Of a stretch of 64,000 nucleotides of DNA, positions 10,711 to 62,803 are shown one piece after another. Position 1 is the first letter of the stretch; every line of letters begins with the position of its first letter. A program made the translations under genes and the position numbers. The notes under the pieces are model-generated. The model ran no database searches. It saw nothing but the letters and a program-made list of their open reading frames with translations, and was not told where the DNA came from. Location: contig CM000151.3 in NCBI GenBank assembly GCA_000004695.1, forward strand, positions 2,816,001 to 2,880,000, written 5' to 3'. The stretch is from Dictyostelium discoideum. Taxonomy: Eukaryota.

Positions 10711-11124
10711 TTAATTTTTTTCATTATTTTTTCTTTGAAAAATCAGAAAAAAAGTGGAAAAAATTGAAAAAGTTGAACTTGGAGCGTACTTTCTAAGGGT
10801 TTGGTGACCATTCAAATCTTCCAAAATAGTTTTACGAAATTCTCTATAGGATAGGCTATATTTGTTATAATTTTTGTGAACCACAAAGCTATTTATGATA
10901 TAACATTCTATGATATACCAAAACAGTGTTAAATACCACTTTTTATTATGACCCGAATAAAATTCTTTTTTATTCTTTGGCGGTCGCAAGCACCCATGTT
11001 CATACGATAAACGATAACTCACCAACACAATAGAAAGTTTAATAGGTTTTGAATTCATTCTTTCCATTGAATTTGATTTATAATCCTCATCTGTTGTTGG
11101 ATCTTTAATTGTTTGAACCACCAC
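10711..11124 (-). CDS. Hypothetical 137-aa ORF, no recognisable domain. It sits in a locally GC-richer patch and may be a gene fragment or a remnant
   Basis: Longest non-low-complexity ORF between G6PD and the paralog cluster. The ATG is MVVQTIKD... No convincing upstream exon was found. Confidence 0.25.
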   Translation of the reverse strand: MVVQTIKDPTTDEDYKSNSMERMNSKPIKLSIVLVSYRLSYEHGCLRPPKNKKEFYSGHNKKWYLTLFWYIIECYIINSFVVHKNYNKYSLSYREFRKTILEDLNGHQTLRKYAPSSTFSIFSTFFLIFQRKNNEKN

Positions 11125-12003: not shown

Positions 12004-12207
12004 AACACTAACACGCTGTATAACGAATATTATTATTATTATACACACAAAGTGAGCTCAGATGGGTATTTTATTTAATAAAATTTTTATGTTGACATAA
12101 TTTTTTATTATTTGAAAAATATATTTACTTATAACTTAGAATAAATTAATAATTTTCAATTGAAAATAAAGAATATTATAATATTCTTTTTACAGCGTGT
12201 TAGTGTT
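12004..12207 (+). repeat. Perfect 17-bp inverted repeat (aacactaacacgctgta / tacagcgtgttagtgtt) flanking an about 170-bp AT-rich segment that itself contains a 20-bp palindrome (12169..12188)
   Basis: 12004..12020 is the exact reverse complement of 12191..12207. MITE-like or a hairpin-forming promoter element about 220 bp upstream of gene 12429. Confidence 0.7.
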
Positions 12208-13225: not shown

Positions 13226-13693
13226 TTTTCCCAATTTTTTTTTTTTTTTTTTTTTTTTAAATATTTTTTTTTTTTTATTATTTTGTTTAAATAATATTTT
13301 ATTATATTCGGCACTATTCCTTTCAACGGATATATTTTTTTTTCATTTTTTTTTTTTATTTTTTAAGTTTTTTTTTTTTTTTTCCTTTTTTATATTAATA
13401 ATATTAATCATAAAATAGGGATGATGGCAAAAACAATGTTATGTGTGTGTTTTTTGTTTTTTATTTTTATTTTGTTCTTTGAAACAAAATCAAAAAAGGA
13501 AATGTGTGGGGGTGTGTGTTTTGATGTTTTTTTTTTATTTTTTTTATTTTTTTTTGTTTTTTTATTTTAATTATTATTTCGCAACCACACCACCCTTTTT
13601 AATAAATAAATTTTAATTTTTTTTTCCATTTTTTTTTTTTTTTTTTCACACCAACATAAATTTTTTTATACCATTTGTTTAATTTTTATCTCA

Positions 13694-14426
13694 ATGGAAG
13701 CTAATAAAACACAAGTAGACCCAAACCAGATTTGTAAGTATAGAATATTAAAAATAAAACACCAATAAAAATAAAAAACCAATAAAAATAAAAAACTATT
13801 AAAAAAAATAAAAACATATAGGTATATCAAATTTTGATGAAATCAGTTTGGATATTGTAACTATTTACGATGGGTTACATACAATAAAATTTAACGATGA
13901 AAAAGCATTTCAACAGTATAAAGAAGTTATCAGCTTTTTAAATAATTGGAGACATACACATACCGATAGGTATCATAATTTTTTCAATTCTGTGAATTGG
14001 TATGAAAGTAGATTAAAAGAAATTGATCAATTATGTTCAACACTAGTGGGTTATAAAATTAATGCTATGCTTTCAAAGAATGATAAAGAATTATTTTCAA
14101 AAGATTTAAATCAAATTTATGAATCAGTTTCAAAACAAAGATTACTTTTGTTAACTAATTTCTACAATTCATCACTCAATAATCAATATGAATCAATTTC
14201 GCAATCAATAAAAACTATAAATTTATCCTTCATTCCACAAATTCCTTTGGATTTAAATCTCGATATTAAAAATCAAAAAAATCAAATTTTCGAATGGAGG
14301 CAGTCAACAATTTCAGAATTAAATCAATCATTGGATGGTTTTGAAGTTAGTTTATTGGAGTTAATAGAATATATAGAATTATATTCATATACCCTCATTA
14401 ATTTGGGTAATATTACATTAGGTTAG
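13694..14426 (+). CDS. Small hypothetical protein, member 2 of the same paralog family; 2 exons: 13694..13733, 13822..14426
   Basis: Exon 1 is MEANKTQVDPNQI plus T, with a GTAAGT donor. The acceptor is ...catatag. The split codon T|GT gives Cys, then ISNFDEISLDIVTIYDGLHTIKF...QIFEWRQSTISELNQSLDGFEVSLLELIEYIELYSYTLINLGNITLG. Confidence 0.6.
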
Positions 14427-14446
14427 TTTTTTTCTTTTGTAATTAA

Positions 14447-14498
<52 letters not shown>

Positions 14499-14640
14499 TA
14501 GAAATAATAGTAAATAGTTTGTATATATTTTTGTAAATAACTTTGTAAAAAATTTTTGTAAATAATATATGTGCATAAATAAATAACCTCACTCAGTATT
14601 AATTGTACATAAAAAATAGTAATAATAATAAAAAAAAAAA

Positions 14641-14762
14641 AAATTATCGATTTCCAAAAACATAACAGTAAATAATTAAAAATCAAATAGAAATCAATTT
14701 AATAAAATTTATTCATTTCAGTATTGCGACCCCCAAAAATAATATAATAGTAATAAATAATA

Positions 14763-14836
<74 letters not shown>

Positions 14837-15330
14837 TATTTCCAAAAATTTTTCATTTCAGTATTGTGACCCAAAAATAGTAATAATTAAAAAAAAAAAA
14901 ATAAAAAAAAAAAAAAAAAAAAAAAAAATATCGAATTTCCAAAAACATAACAGGAAAGAATTAAAATTCAAATAGAAATCAATTTAATAAAATTCATTCA
15001 TTTCAGTATTGCGACCACCCAAAAATAAAATAGTAATAATAAAAAAAAAATCGAATTTCCAAAAACATAGTTCAACCGATAACAGTAAAGAATTAAAAAT
15101 CGAATTTCCAAAAACACAGTTTAATCGATAACAGTAAAGAATTAAAAATCAAATAGAAATCAACTTAGTTATTCTATTGGCCTACTATGAGCAAACAGCC
15201 GCCTGCCAACAGCTGGCGACCGCTGGGCTAAAAAAACACAGTTTAATCGATAACAGTAAAGAATTAAAAATCAAATAGAAATCAACTTAGTTATTCATTT
15301 CAGTATTGCGACTACCCAACACCTAGTTTT
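14641..15330 (+). mobile_element. Tandem array of at least 5 truncated non-LTR retrotransposon 3'-end units (TRE/DRE-like 'C-module'-type), each ending in an oligo/poly(A) tail; contains a GC-rich 62-bp insertion (15170..15231)
   Basis: Repeated unit core '(t)cgaatttccaaaaaca(t/c)a...ataacagtaaagaattaaaaatcaaatagaaatcaa(t/c)tt...attcatttcagtattgcgac(c)cccaaaaata', each followed by A-runs (up to about 66 A at 14767..14832). The units are truncated at different 5' positions, as expected for 5'-truncated LINE-like insertions. Confidence 0.4.
14767..14832 (+). repeat. Poly(A) homopolymer about 66 nt (retroelement A-tail)
   Basis: Uninterrupted A-run following a TRE-like 3'-end unit. Confidence 0.9.
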
Positions 15331-15843
15331 TATTTTACAAATAAAAAAATTTAATTTTTAATTTTTTATTTTTAATTTAAATGAAAAATTTTTTTCATTT
15401 AAATTAAAAATAAAAAATTAAAAAAAAAAAAATTTTAAAAAAAAAAAAAAAAAAAAAAAACTTTTTTTTTTTTCCCATTTTTTTTTTTTTTTTTTTTTTT
15501 TTTCATCACTATGGTTTCTATTTTTATATCTTCAAAATTTAGTCCAATTTTAGCACAAAAATTTTTTTTTTTTTTTTAATTCTATTTAAATCATTTCACC
15601 ACTTGGTGTGTGTGTGTTTTTTTTTTTGAAAAAAACAAAAAAAAAAAAAAAAGGTTTTATTTATTTTCATTGAAAAAAAAAAAAAAAAAAAAAAAAATAA
15701 TTTATCACAAAATGATGATGTACCACATTTTTTCTTTTTTATAATTTTTTTTTTTTTTTTTGTTTTATTATTTTACAAATATAATGTGGGTTGAAAAGTG
15801 AAAAAATAAGAAATAAAAAAAAAAAAAAGCAAAAATAAAAAAT

Positions 15844-20595
<4,752 letters not shown>

Positions 20596-24908: not shown

Positions 24909-25820
24909 TTACATATAGGCATACTCTTTAGCTTGCTTTAATCCTCCAATAATGCCATGTAGTAGTTCGGCTAATGAATTTCTGTTGATTAAATAATCAT
25001 GTTCGCTATAATTTTCAACCTGGTCTTTAAAATTTTGATAGTACTCTTGTACATATGAACTAAAATGTGTAAAATAATTATTTAAAATTGTGAATGATAA
25101 TTTTGTAATTTCAATTTTACCCAATTGTAATGATACTAGACAAAATTCTGATATTTTAGTTGGCCTGTAATAGTTAAAAAAAAAATCCTCATTTAAAGAC
25201 TTTTCACTCTTGATTACTTTAAATATATAATTTATTGATGTTAATTCTAAATTAAGACAGCACCATTTAATTATAAATTTTGGAAAATTCAATTCTTCTT
25301 TACCACCTGAACCAATTAATTCCAACTCTTTTAAAAATAAATCTTTTCTTTTTAGTAAAATGAATAGTTGTAAATTACGTTGAATAACTCCCTGACATTT
25401 TGAGTAACCAAATATTTCTACTTCTTCTTTATATGGACGATATATAACCGAATCAATTAAATCATCAAATGGTGATTGTTGAATGAATTCTAAAGATATT
25501 GTTTTAATAGTTTTTTTAATTGTTTTATGAATATCTCCTTTATCTTTTAAATATTCATACAATATTGGTGATCTTTTAAATATTAAGAATAGTTTTAATT
25601 GTTTATTTTCAATTTGAAATTCATATTGATTTTCAATTAAAACATCATACATTTGGTTAATTATTTCAAAATCCTCTCCTTTTTCATAATTTCTAAAATT
25701 ACAATAAAATAAAACTTCTAATAATCTTAAATAAATTTTTAAATTTGCTTGCTGTGTTTTAAAAGAGTCTTCAATACTATTATTATTATTATAATTATTA
25801 TTATTATTATTATTATTATA

Positions 25821-25901
<81 letters not shown>

Positions 25902-27739
25902 TATTTTAATTATTTCTCTACATTTATTTATTTGAATAATTATTAAATTAATAAATAATGGGTCATATTTATTTGATTTTATATTGAAATCCAACTCTTT
26001 ATTTGTAAAGATTAAATTCTCGACAACCAATCTTGATAAATTATAATTTAATGTTTTTGATGATAAATTATAATTTAATGTTTTTGATAATAAATCTTTA
26101 ATTAATTCTTTATTTAAATTGATTTTAATTTTTGAGAGATTAAACTTTATATGTTCATTTGAATTGGTTCTATTATTATATTGATCATCTTTATAATAAC
26201 CATTGTTAGCTATATATTCAACTAATTTGTAAAGATCATTAGAAGGATCACCCATTTGACTATCTAATATAAAATTGAACATTGTATTATATTCTTGGTA
26301 TATTAATTCATCATCTTCATTTAATAATCTTTTATTTAAAGAAAATAGTACTTTATGTAAATAATTTCCAATTTTAAGACCCAAAGAGTCAAAATATTTA
26401 AAATCATTGATATTACTTTCAGCAAATGCCTTTAAAAATGGTACAAAATAAAAGCCATTTGAATTTTTTGTTATTGAATGTAATTTTATAAAATAATTTG
26501 ATAATTCAACCGAATCATAATAAAAATCAATTGTATTAATTTTATATAATTTATAGTCCATATCTTCTATCCAATTACTAAGCAAATTTATTGTTTCAAT
26601 ATCTTTAGCAATTGAAAGTACATTACAATTACCAATACTTGATAAAATTGGATTCCAGTGCAATGGTAAATTATTTTTATATTTATTTGGTATGAAACTA
26701 TATAATTCTTCATATGTTGATTTATCAGTTTGTAACATTATATTTAAAATTGTATCTTTAATATATAGATTTCCTTCTTCTTCTTCTTCTTCTTCTTCTT
26801 CTTCTTCTTCTTCTTCTTCTTCTTCTTCTTCTTCTTCTTCTTCTTCTTCTTCTTCTTCTTCTTCTTTTTCTTCTTCTTCTTCTTCATCATAATCATTATC
26901 ATCATCACCATCTTCTTCTTCTTTTTCTTCTTCTTCTTCTTCATTCAAACAATGGTTATAATTTATTTTTGATATAAGGAGTCTTAAGAATTCGATTGAT
27001 CTTTTTAAATTTGATATTATTTTATTTGCTTTATTGTTATTGCCATGGTAAACTTTTAAATGATATATGGTGAAGTCAATTTGTTTAAATATTGATGGTA
27101 TGTAATTGTAAAGGCAATAATCGATTGCAATTTCTTTAAAATTATCAATTGAAATTAATTCATCACCTATATTATCATGATATTTTGATAAATATAATTC
27201 AAATAATGTTTTTGATTTTGATAAAATGATTAATTGTTTTAATAATTCTTGAATAGTTTCATCATCATTTTGTTTTAATAATGATTCTAATGGTGGATGT
27301 TCTCCCCTATATAATTTAATACATTCAAATAATATTTCTAATTTATCTTTATTATTATTATTGTTATTATTAAAATTTTCAATTTCTTTATCAAATATGA
27401 TTTTGATATAATCTAATAATTTATAATTTGTTTTGAAATTTGTTGAAACTTCTAATTTTTCTAAATCTATTGCTAATTTTGCACCAATCCTTTTTTTACA
27501 ATTCCTATTATTTATGAAAAATGAAACATATTCATTAAATTGATTTGGTTGTTGTTCTTGTTGTTGACCTATTAATATAAGATGGTCTAACATAATATTC
27601 TCTAATGTAATACCATGAACTCTGTTTCCAGTCATACTCATTTTGTTGAAACCATAAAAACCATCTCCATTCCATGATTCCATAGTATATGATTCAAAAG
27701 TTTTATCTTTATTTATTTTAGTATTATCATCATCACCAC

Positions 27740-27827
<88 letters not shown>

Positions 27828-28367
27828 ATTTTTATTATTATTATTTTTATTATTAATATAATTTAAGGATTCAAATAATATTTTAATAACTTCATAACTA
27901 CCATGGTATAACGCTAATTGGATTATTTTATCATCATCTAATGATTTATAATCTCTTTTTTCAAGTATTAATTGTAATATTTCTTTAAATAATTCAATTT
28001 TAATAGAGATATTATATATATTATAATTAGAATAATATTCTTCCTTTCTTAATAATTGAATATTATTATTACCATTATATTCACTTTCATTAATTAAATA
28101 GAGTTCGATTAAATGCCTGATACTAGAGTAGGTAATAAAAACATATTCATCATTTATTAATTTTGATTTTAATAATTGAAATTGGTTATTTTTAATCATC
28201 CATTTTAAACTATAAATATATTTAAATTTAATTCTTTTATCTTTATCAAATAAAAAATTGATTTCATTGTTGTTGAATAATTCACTGTTTTCCATGATTT
28301 CAAATATTAAATTAAATAAATATTTGTTGTGAAACACTTTCCAAAATAGAATTTCATTATTATTCAT
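24909..28367 (-). CDS. Large (1152 aa) hypothetical protein with poly-Asn and long poly-Glu tracts; no recognisable domain
   Basis: Single uninterrupted ORF. The ATG (MNNNEILFWKVFHNKYLF...) is preceded by an in-frame stop. The (GAA)n run at 26775..26935 encodes about 50 consecutive Glu. The non-repeat parts have good coding composition. Confidence 0.7.
26775..26935 (-). repeat. (GAA)n on the coding strand, about 160 nt, encoding a poly-Glu tract within the 1152-aa protein
   Basis: Plus strand (CTT)n. In-frame EEEE... in ORF 24909..28367. Confidence 0.9.
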
Positions 28368-32729: not shown

Positions 32730-34628
32730 TTAATCTAAATCTTCTTCAGTGGTTTTGGCACCAGAGAAGTTACCTGGGTTTTCACCACCTTGTTGACCGT
32801 AAACTTTAGAGATGATTGGTGAACAAACAGCTTCTAAATCTTTCATGGCTTTTTCGTATTCTTCTTTAGTGGCAGAGTCGTTGGCATGTAACCAGTTGAT
32901 GGCTTCATCGGATTTCTCTTCGACGGTCTTACGATCTTCTTTTGATAATTTGGCGGCGATCTTATCGTCTTTAATGGTGCTACGAACGGTGTAAGCGTAG
33001 TTTTCTAATTTGTTCTTTGATTCAACAACTTCACGTTGGGCTTCATCTTGAGCTTTGAACATTTCAGCATCTTTGACCATCTTTTCGATTTGTTCAGCAG
33101 TGAGTCTACCTTTATCGTTGGTGATGGTGATTTTGTGTTTGTTACCAGTGCTCTTATCTTCAGCAGAGACATTTAAGATACCGTTGGCATCGATATCGAA
33201 AGTAACTTCAATTTGTGGGACACCACGTGGAGCTGGTGGGATGTTGGTTAATTCGAATTTACCTAATAAGTTGTTATCACGAGTCATAGCACGTTCACCT
33301 TCGTAGACTTGAACTAAGACACCAGTTTGGTTATCAGAGTAGGTGGAGAAAGTTTGGTTCTTTTTGCATGGAATGGTAGTATTTCTTGGGATGAGGGTAG
33401 TCATGACACCACCGGCGGTTTCGAGACCCATTGATAATGGAGCAACATCTAATAATAAGATATCGGCAACTTTAGCACCACCTTCGTTGGAGAGAATGGC
33501 AGCTTGGACGGCAGCACCATAGGCAACGGCTTCATCTGGATTGATGGATTTGTTGAGTTCTTTACCGTTGAAATGATCTTGTAATAATTGTTGAACCTTT
33601 GGAATACGAGTTGAACCACCGACTAAGACGATTTCGTGAATGGTCTTCTTGTCTAATTTGGAGTCTTTTAAGACTTTGTCGACTGGGTCTAAACAACCAC
33701 GGAAGAGATCAGCGCATAATTCTTCGAAACGAGCTCTGGTGATTGAGGTGTAGAAATCAATACCTTCAAAGAGGGAATCAATTTCAATTGAAGCTTGAGC
33801 AGATGAAGATAAAGTTCTCTTGGCACGTTCACAAGCAGTTCTTAAACGACGGAGGGCACGTTGGTTGGTCATTAAGTCTTTCTTGTGTTTACGTTTGAAT
33901 TCATCGACAAAGTGGTTGACGAGACGGTTATCAAAATCTTCACCACCTAAATGGGTATCACCAGCGGTAGCTTTGACTTCAAAGACACCATCTTCAATGG
34001 TGAGGAGAGAAACATCGAATGTACCACCACCTAAATCGAAAATTAAGATGTTACGTTCACCTTGTGATTTCTTTTCGAGACCATAGGCAATAGCGGCGGC
34101 AGTTGGTTCATTGATAATACGTTGGACGTTTAATTTAGCGATGGCACCTGCATCTTTGGTGGCTTGACGTTGGCTATCGTTGAAATAAGCTGGAACGGTG
34201 ATAACGGCGTTGTTGATGGTTTTACCGAGGTAAGCTTCAGCGGTTTCTTTCATCTTTAAGAGAACCATTGAAGAGACTTCTTCTGGTGAGAAAGTTTTAA
34301 CTTCACCTTTGAATTCAACTTGGAGATGTGGTTTGTCACCTTCTTTGGCGATAACTTTGAATGGCCAATGTTTCATATCGGATTGGATAACTGGATCAGA
34401 GAATTTACGACCAATTAAACGTTTGGCATCAAAGATGGTGTTGGTTGGATTCATGGCAACTTGATTCTTAGCAGCATCACCAATTAAACGTTCAGTTTCG
34501 TTGAAAGCAACGTATGATGGGGTGGTTCTGTTACCTTGATCATTAGCAATGATTTCAACACGATCATTTTGCCAGACACCAACACATGAGTAAGTTGTAC
34601 CTAAATCAATACCAATAGAGGAAGACAT
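32730..34628 (-). CDS. Cytosolic Hsp70/Hsc70 family chaperone (632 aa, intronless)
   Basis: Full-length match to the Hsp70 family: '[14 protein letters not shown]', '[12 protein letters not shown]', '[13 protein letters not shown]' and the substrate-binding domain. The C-terminus is ...[19 protein letters not shown]. Confidence 0.95.

Positions 34629-41064: not shown

Positions 41065-41134
<70 letters not shown>

Positions 41135-61262: not shown

Positions 61263-61344
<82 letters not shown>

Positions 61345-62744: not shown

Positions 62745-62803
<59 letters not shown>

Follow-up and report, generated by a model that had tools for sequence, protein, structure and literature searches.

A decayed, A-tailed repeat array with a candidate TRE5-A-like retro-insertion upstream of a Roco kinase gene in Dictyostelium discoideum

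Introduction

The TREs of Dictyostelium serve as a model for "safe-haven" integration beside tRNA genes in a compact haploid genome. What, then, is to be made of a D. discoideum locus at which short, AT-rich units, several of them ending in long A-runs, follow one another in a single orientation, are interrupted by a GC-rich piece of some 60 bp, and have no tRNA gene in their vicinity? A preliminary description of this locus read the units as repeated, independent non-LTR insertions into a hotspot and the GC-rich piece as foreign-looking. Two questions follow, namely, whether the units were inserted one by one or multiplied in place, and which molecule the GC-rich piece was copied from; the analysis presented here addresses both, starting from the surroundings of the array, proceeding through its anatomy and ending with the alternatives that have to be weighed.

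Results

The stretch of D. discoideum DNA that was analyzed (hereafter, the window) is 64 kb long, has a G+C content of about 20%, and encodes FNIP and Dicty_CTDC repeats, a Roco kinase, an Hsp70 and an importin-alpha. The array is housed in a 1.4-kb spacer, to the left of which lies an unnamed gene on the + strand (its last exon falls within the ORF 13848-14426 (+), with the stop codon at 14426), and to the right of which lies a qkgA-type Roco kinase gene with its ATG at 15844, for which by-eye splicing (15844-16578 joined to 16669-20595) results in a product of 1553 aa, which we take to be the length of D. discoideum QkgA.

No tRNA genes were found by either ARAGORN or Rfam across the 64 kb, which upholds, and extends to the whole window, the earlier statement that none is present within 200 bp of the array. 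Rfam families scoring at or above their gathering score numbered zero across the same 64 kb, and the region 13500-16500 gave no relevant Rfam match even at E <=10. The B-box consensus GGTTCGAATCC has no site with three or fewer mismatches in 14400-15500, and the sole B-box-core-like site, GTTCAACCG at 15070, is on the + strand, which is the wrong one for TRE5, as the 5' end of such an element faces the 5' end of its target gene. Reverse transcriptase or endonuclease remnants were likewise absent from the window, as judged by Pfam (20 ORFs) and by a phmmer comparison of human L1 ORF2 with the six-frame translation.

The array itself occupies 14585-15324 and consists of six to seven + strand copies or pieces of one AT-rich unit of 105-112 nt, meaning that the repeat reported previously (at least five copies of a unit of about 120 bp) is a real one. 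The seven pieces, designated U0 to U6, yielded a consensus of approximately 112 nt upon alignment with MAFFT. The core 17-mer CATTTCAGTATTGCGAC, when up to three mismatches were allowed, was found at four sites of the window (14714, 14854, 14999 and 15296), with 0.06 expected, and TCGAATTTCCAAAAACA occurs exactly at 14931, 15051 and 15100.

The leftmost piece, U0 (14585..14643, +; delimited by direct reading and MAFFT), is a degenerate, 3'-only one, which runs from CTCAGTATT to AAAATAGTAATAATAATA and then into A14; it is 57-67% identical to the remaining units and has the tail motif AAAATAGTAATAATAA in common with U2 and U3. It is followed by U1 (14644..14833, +), a complete short form with an A-rich tail closing in a pure A69 (14765-14833), and by U2 (14834..14928, +), in which an internal deletion has joined the first 12 nt to the last ~35 nt, the middle having been lost between two A5-like stretches; U2 matches the core 17-mer with one mismatch and continues into an A-run of about 40 nt (94% pure). 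U3 (14929..15050, +) is again a complete short form, and its tail closes in A10. The pieces further to the right are of a long form: U4 (15051..15099, +) represents its first 49 nt and has neither a 3' end nor a tail, U5 (15100..15174, +) represents its first 75 nt and is the left half of a unit split by an insertion, and U6 (15237..15324, +) is the remainder of this split unit, with the first 15 nt absent and no A tail of its own.

Pairwise identity of the units ranges from 77 to 95%, with U5 and U6 being 100% identical, and it is the neighbours that are most alike (U3/U4, 94.6%; U4/U5, 93.9%), with U1/U3 at 87.6%. Two subtypes can be told apart by a 12-nt segment, which is present in U4, U5 and U6 and absent from U1 and U3, as well as by a 6-nt indel difference. 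The claim that the units are truncated at different 5' points does not withstand the alignment, as U1, U3, U4 and U5 all begin on one and the same base, and U0 alone is a 3'-only piece. Indels and changes in A-run length have made the periods of the array irregular (49, 95, 122 and 190 bp). The shortest of these corresponds to a 49-bp tandem duplication formed by U4 and the start of U5 (Tandem Repeats Finder: 15046-15154, period of 49, 2.2 copies, 93% matches), at the junction of which the internal motif AAAAATCAAAT is similar to the start of the unit, AAAAATCGAAT, a likeness that suggests misaligned exchange.

Outside the array, neither the rest of the window nor about 105 kb of D. discoideum DNA from elsewhere, transposon clusters included, contained a match to the unit. 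A 19-mer of the unit had three exact-pattern matches in metagenomes and GTDB genomes, which equals the chance expectation, and the one that was checked (on a metagenome contig) has unrelated flanks. The unit does not contain an A/B-box promoter, reading of the sequence reveals no target-site duplication around any single unit, and the 3' region of the unit is nearly unstructured (-3 to -4.5 kcal/mol at 22 C).

As for the tails, the complete units share the terminal A-rich motif AAAATAGTAATAAT, which leads into a pure A-run, always on a single strand, and between an A-run and the next unit start there are either 1-3 variable bases (TTA, TTG, TA) or none. The preliminary description had every unit ending in an A-run, with one of these being about 66 nt long; this is true of U0 to U3, where the longest run is 69 nt, and untrue of U4 and U6, which are tailless. 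As the window contains 58 A/T runs of at least 20 nt, with the longest reaching 76 nt, A-runs constitute weak evidence for poly(A) tails here, and the "tails" of the units may not be poly(A) tails.

The GC-rich piece that separates U5 from U6 (INS; 15175..15236, +) comprises a 55-nt three-stem hairpin and A7, and is read here as a retro-copied RNA 3' end. It occurs a single time in the window, and its G+C content over the 55 non-tail bases is 60%, versus 18% for the rest of the array. The earlier report of a GC-rich 62-bp insert was thus sound as to the existence of the piece, and it is the position that needs correcting, from 15170..15231 to 15175-15236. The A7 tail lies on the same strand as the unit tails and can alternatively be regarded as A2 plus five target A residues.

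A direct repeat flanking INS had been overlooked previously. Its left copy, revealed by a repeat search, spans 15110..15174 (+) and is 65 nt long when the leading AAAAA is included, or 60 nt when counted from 15115, and its right copy (15232..15296, +) reproduces 15110-15174 perfectly; the two are identical at 65 of 65 positions, with no extension on either side, and the repeat shortens to 60 nt if AAAAA is assigned to the tail.

U5 and U6 jointly rebuild one unit that is collinear with the intact U1 and U3, from which it follows that INS and one copy of the 60-65-bp repeat represent an insertion with a target duplication. Moreover, as the flanks show no differences at all, versus differences of 5-23% in the other unit pairs, the duplication must have arisen in the course of the insertion, at a time when the array already existed. 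The A7 tail and the perfect 60-65-bp flanking repeat are the footprint of target-primed reverse transcription, the mechanism that we infer for this event.

Several other identities of INS were tried and rejected. A piece of a tRNA, snRNA, SRP RNA, rRNA or class I RNA found no backing in either Rfam (no match at E <=10) or ARAGORN (no call), and the A-box-like TAGCCCAGCGG on its minus strand is not followed by any tRNA-like fold. A 46-aa reading frame across INS had, library-wide, a sole HMMER match, to an internally repetitive protein of 1325 aa, with the 36% identity summed over 17 weak stretches, and was judged to be a repeat artefact. In the full text of the literature, 12-15-mers of INS and of the unit match unrelated papers only.

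Just to the right of the array lies a palindrome (15355..15424, no strand assigned) with perfect 34-nt arms (15355-15388 and 15391-15424) and a 2-nt spacer. The long AT palindrome noted near 15385 is therefore present, and is stronger than it had been described to be: it is the sole perfect inverted repeat with an arm of at least 14 nt in the 64 kb, and the maximum arm in 30 block shuffles was 14 nt. The right arm runs on into A13 and A24 (up to ~15460), resembling the unit tails, and one might speculate, from this adjacency alone, that snap-back synthesis or hairpin repair copied the tail of the rightmost unit in inverted form and so gave rise to the left arm.

A second assembly (GCA_054883475.1) offered an independent view of the locus. 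The counterpart of the window in its contig JBTAPE010000001.1 (locus L008) was found via a 1152-aa ORF at 24909-28367 (minus strand) and is 99.78% identical to window positions 14893-38375 over 23.5 kb, with 26 mismatches and 10 gaps. The comparison covers the region from 14893 rightward, the left half of the array (14585-14892, with the A69) lying outside L008. Over 14893-15420, which encompasses U3 to U6, INS, both copies of the duplication and most of the palindrome, the two assemblies are 100% identical, and SNPs, indels and homopolymer lengths set them apart a few hundred bases further to the right. The right half of the array and INS, being identical in an independent locus that differs nearby, are thus not an assembly artefact, which, for this half, speaks against the collapse that the preliminary description had wished to see checked.

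Discussion

The account that we prefer for the locus as a whole, and which we hold with about as much confidence as doubt, is that of an amplified and decayed A-tailed array into which a TRE5-A-like retro-insertion was nested later. Its first step would be the landing of one or two AT-rich, 105-112-nt copies ending in an A tail, and the founder would probably have been the 3' end of a poly(A)-type TRE-like retroelement; a retroelement origin of the founder unit is plausible but unproven. In a second step, the array would have expanded and degenerated as DNA, with the A-runs and the internal AAAAATC motif serving as the places where unequal exchange or replication slippage occurred, which would explain the common 5' boundary, the 49-bp duplication of U4/U5, the internal deletion of U2 and A-runs of up to 69 nt. 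This step is in part visible in the anatomy of the array. The third step would be a later, separate insertion, in the same orientation, of the 55-nt RNA 3' end (the GC-rich three-stem hairpin) with a short oligo(A): the bottom strand would be nicked at the T5 opposite 15110-15114, this T5 would prime on the A tail, the top strand would be nicked 60 nt downstream, after 15174, and fill-in would then produce the perfect 60-65-bp duplication. The insertion event can be read directly from the anatomy of the split unit, and target-primed reverse transcription is the mechanism that would account for it.

What speaks for multiplication in place is, above all, the shape of the units. The common 5' start of U1, U3, U4 and U5 means that these are not variably 5'-truncated. 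Target-primed reverse transcription always begins at the RNA 3' end, and, as U4 is devoid of a 3' end, it is no primary product of this process. Taken together with the ubiquity of A-runs in the window, these two features make amplification at the DNA level a better explanation than five insertions. The reading of the units as repeated independent non-LTR insertions consequently falls on the shared 5' boundary, on U4 and on the greater likeness of neighbours, whereas the broader notion of retroelement debris survives in part: the hallmarks are there, with one orientation, a tail-to-head order and one insertion of the reverse-transcription type, and it is the five separate insertions that have to be given up.

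If amplification in place is granted, a retroelement founder might not be required at all, and the array could be an ordinary intergenic minisatellite with a period of ~120-145 bp that arose by slippage or unequal crossing-over, its A-runs being incidental and only INS being retro-inserted, a reading which we deem possible, albeit not probable. The units do follow one another head to tail in a constant phase (four of them share one 5' phase), with partial copies, U0 and U6, at the edges of the array and with the greatest similarity between adjacent ones; in this, as well as in the 49-bp, 2.2-copy duplication and the variation of homopolymer lengths, the array is like AT-rich minisatellites. 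The missing 3' end of U4, the abundance of A/T runs of at least 20 nt (58 in 64 kb), the lack of visible target-site duplications around single units, a window without a tRNA gene or a reverse transcriptase or endonuclease ORF remnant, and a unit 3' region that, at -3 to -4.5 kcal/mol (22 C), is unlike the ends of TRE5-A and TRE5-C are all in line with such an origin. The array differs from an AT-rich minisatellite, however, in that its A tails are strand-specific, with the complete units ending in AAAATAGTAATAAT and a pure A-run on one strand as in a poly(A)-type element, and in that it hosts an insertion of the reverse-transcription type, so that a retroelement did integrate here once, and in the same orientation. 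The variable 0-3 junction bases, moreover, bring to mind the non-templated bases that have been described at the 5' junctions of such elements.

At least five independent TRE/DRE-type or SINE-like insertions at one hotspot, be it by priming on the T-run opposite the previous poly(A) tail or by targeting a tRNA gene lost since, appear improbable to us. The pattern documented for D. discoideum tRNA genes is that of non-disrupting TRE-TRE tandems (PMC5391098), and the array is like these TRE5 and TRE3 tandems in that its A-tailed copies are arranged head to tail, in the same orientation and without disrupting one another; the tail-to-head order with A-runs of unequal length and the two subtypes with their 12-nt and 6-nt indels would also suit separate arrivals, and the common 5' end would suit full-length copies of a short non-autonomous element. 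The array differs from the tandems, though, in having no tRNA gene, units of only ~110 nt, a single 5' boundary and no ORF remnants. Randomly 5'-truncated LINE copies are not expected to share their 5' ends, and the combination of variable 5' truncation with an intact 3' end is not what the units display, given their common 5' start, a U4 without a 3' end, which is hence not a primary reverse-transcription product, and a tailless U6. Neither do the units lie where TREs do (~50 bp upstream or 40-150 bp downstream of a tRNA gene), there being no tRNA or other Pol III gene in the 64 kb and no B box in 14400-15500. A SINE-like nature is countered by the absence of A/B boxes, and thereby of such a promoter, from the unit and by the lack of further copies in the window or in the ~105 kb of other D. 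discoideum loci.

The notion that INS is a foreign fragment, be it of bacterial, organellar or rDNA origin, or a chimera of the assembly, as its 60% G+C within an 18% G+C background could suggest and as the preliminary description had wished to see checked for rDNA, mitochondrial and bacterial sources, can be set aside as highly improbable, as INS is identical in an independent assembly with SNPs nearby, has zero matches in the collections covered, namely, 5,426 E. coli genomes, PLSDB plasmids and, by exact-pattern scans, GTDB genomes and JGI metagenomes, has only chance 27-nt matches among phages (E = 0.4) and no rRNA or other RNA match in Rfam at E <=10, and bears an A tail and a perfect flanking duplication that point to insertion by reverse transcription.

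Under the preferred account, which thus retains both the amplified array and the nested insertion, the question of the RNA that was copied into INS remains to be addressed, and the terminal hairpin of the TRE5-A C-module seems to be the best candidate for it, the likeness being one to its published description. The last 54 nt of the TRE5-A C-module form stems I-III with a dG of -20.08 kcal/mol at 22 C, and retrotransposition cannot proceed without this terminal hairpin (Siol et al. 2011, PMC3159450). For the terminal 54 nt of INS, ViennaRNA likewise predicts three stems, at -20.56 kcal/mol and 22 C; at 37 C, the three-stem fold of INS has -17.8 kcal/mol, which is not better than in composition-matched shuffles (z = -1.0). 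Residues C38, A35, C26 and T15 of the TRE5-A hairpin, which are located in stems, have been mutated (PMC3159450). When INS is counted from its last base, C38 and A35 match at offset 0, and C26 and T15 match with a 1-nt shift, that is, two of the four published residues agree at offset 0, three at +1, and agreement at all four requires a 1-nt indel; the T15C mutation would break no pair in the INS fold. Processed pseudogenes are reported to be absent from D. discoideum (PMC3159450), so that the RNA of a retroelement itself is the likelier template. The copied RNA might accordingly be represented here by an extremely 5'-truncated, off-target TRE5-A copy.

Apart from a 3' end of ~54 nt that is predicted to form three stems and a nearly equal fold energy, INS is like TRE5-A in the oligo(A) that follows the hairpin and in the presence of a target-site duplication, and 5' truncation is nothing unusual in elements of this class. 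The differences are, however, just as evident. TRE5-A has always been reported 44-54 bp upstream of a tRNA gene or an A/B-box site, and neither is found at such a distance from the 5' end of INS; its target-site duplications are 10-16 bp long, whereas that of INS, at 60-65 bp, is 4-6 times the usual length. The C-module, 134-137 bp in length, also contains two CbfA sites, each with an oligo(dT) run of 14-22 T (PMC2661138), and INS keeps the hairpin only, without those sites. The possibility that U5 and INS, which together span 137 bp and thereby equal a published C-module length, constitute a whole C-module was considered and rejected, since U5 lacks the T14-22 runs of the CbfA sites and, together with U6, is collinear with intact units.

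A non-LTR reverse transcriptase, the unit and INS are all absent from five transposon loci of D. discoideum, D. citrinum and D. dimigraforme, which instead contain DIRS, Skipper and DGLT-A sequences and three tRNA genes; the paralogous Roco-kinase loci that were fetched had no transposons, and INS was not seen in the ~105 kb of other D. discoideum DNA. A more distant parallel is provided by severely 5'-truncated mammalian L1 copies with unusually long target-site duplications, which INS resembles in combining a short 3' end, an A tail and a flanking direct repeat. In L1, the direct repeat is made by staggered nicks, the first of which is placed at a T-run. The host and the family are different ones, however, and in Dictyostelium the elements are, as a rule, tethered to Pol III genes.

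Conclusions

The region is real, stable, non-coding repeat debris, which we take to be inert, and a cellular function is not anticipated for it. What is surprising about it is limited to the missing Pol III target and the 60-65-bp duplication, the locus being otherwise ordinary decayed repeat DNA, and its practical value lies in an annotation note and a marker locus, as A69 and the number of repeats are likely to vary between strains. Something of a long shot is the stronger proposition that INS is a genuine TRE copy (TRE5-A or another one) that integrated without a nearby Pol III gene, with the T-run opposite the A-rich sequence of an older element as the site of nicking and priming and with a 60-65-bp duplication as the result, and/or that the ~110-nt unit is an undescribed SINE-like retroelement of D. 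discoideum. If true, INS would be the record of a tRNA-independent, tail-targeted route of integration in elements for which strict targeting of tRNA genes has been described. A TRE 3' end located 520 bp upstream of a kinase gene would, if confirmed, be a natural off-target event, and INS would then show how the integration machinery behaves when it is untethered from TFIIIB.

Pol III box-like sites in the array and a tRNA gene at another locus

Within U4, one of the same-strand pieces of the AT-rich repeat unit, a weak match to the B-box core (GTTCAACCG, 15070-15078, plus strand) is seen, and the target sequence duplicated around the GC-rich insert lies 37-97 bp downstream of this site; such a position would fit integration of the TRE3 type (downstream, same-orientation), not of the TRE5 type. 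The minus strand of the insert itself holds an A-box-like site (TAGCCCAGCGG, 15220-15230), and chance expectation covers both this and the B-box-core-like site. At another D. discoideum locus, L004 (GCA_054859355.1, contig JBTAPG010000003.1, 11790-12500), a tRNA-Pro(UGG) gene is found at 12130-12205, with a DGLT-A-like pol gene ending ~340 bp before it.

The reading frame across the insert and other ORFs in the window

A library search with the frame running across the insert returned P0283 (E = 2e-20, summed over 17 weak stretches), a predicted protein of 1325 aa consisting of ~40 repeats of LIVSYLRSCSEIASSGLKLH..., which is probably translated satellite DNA; the match is probably a repeat-driven false positive. 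Elsewhere in the window, a 137-aa ORF (10711-11124, minus strand) has, on visual inspection, a sequence similar to the C-terminal portion of piggyBac-type transposases (...KKWYLTLFWYIIECYIINSFVV...SYREFRKTILEDL...), and a Pfam search with it gave no match at E values up to 0.01. A two-exon gene on the plus strand (15844-16578 and 16669-20595) encodes a 1553-aa Roco kinase with LRR, Roc, COR-A, COR-B and kinase domains, whose best relative among the database matches returned, from a protein set that appears to lack the true orthologues, is from D. citrinum (only 63% identical, not syntenic). An intact 632-aa Hsp70 ORF (32730-34628, minus strand) lies within a 41% G+C island, at ~2x the local G+C.

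The AT palindrome and the homopolymer baseline

Beside the array lies a perfect 70-bp AT palindrome (15355-15424; 34-nt arms, 2-nt spacer), conserved in a second assembly, and no other perfect inverted repeat in the 64 kb has arms of at least 14 nt; from the palindrome's right arm continue A13 and A24 runs, resembling the repeat tails. A/T homopolymer runs of at least 20 nt number 58 in the window, or ~1 per 1.1 kb (e.g., 61265-61340, 62745-62802 and 41072-41127; the longest is T76), and A-runs alone are therefore no evidence of poly(A) tails in the D. discoideum genome, for which such a window-wide count is a useful baseline when A-runs are to be judged.
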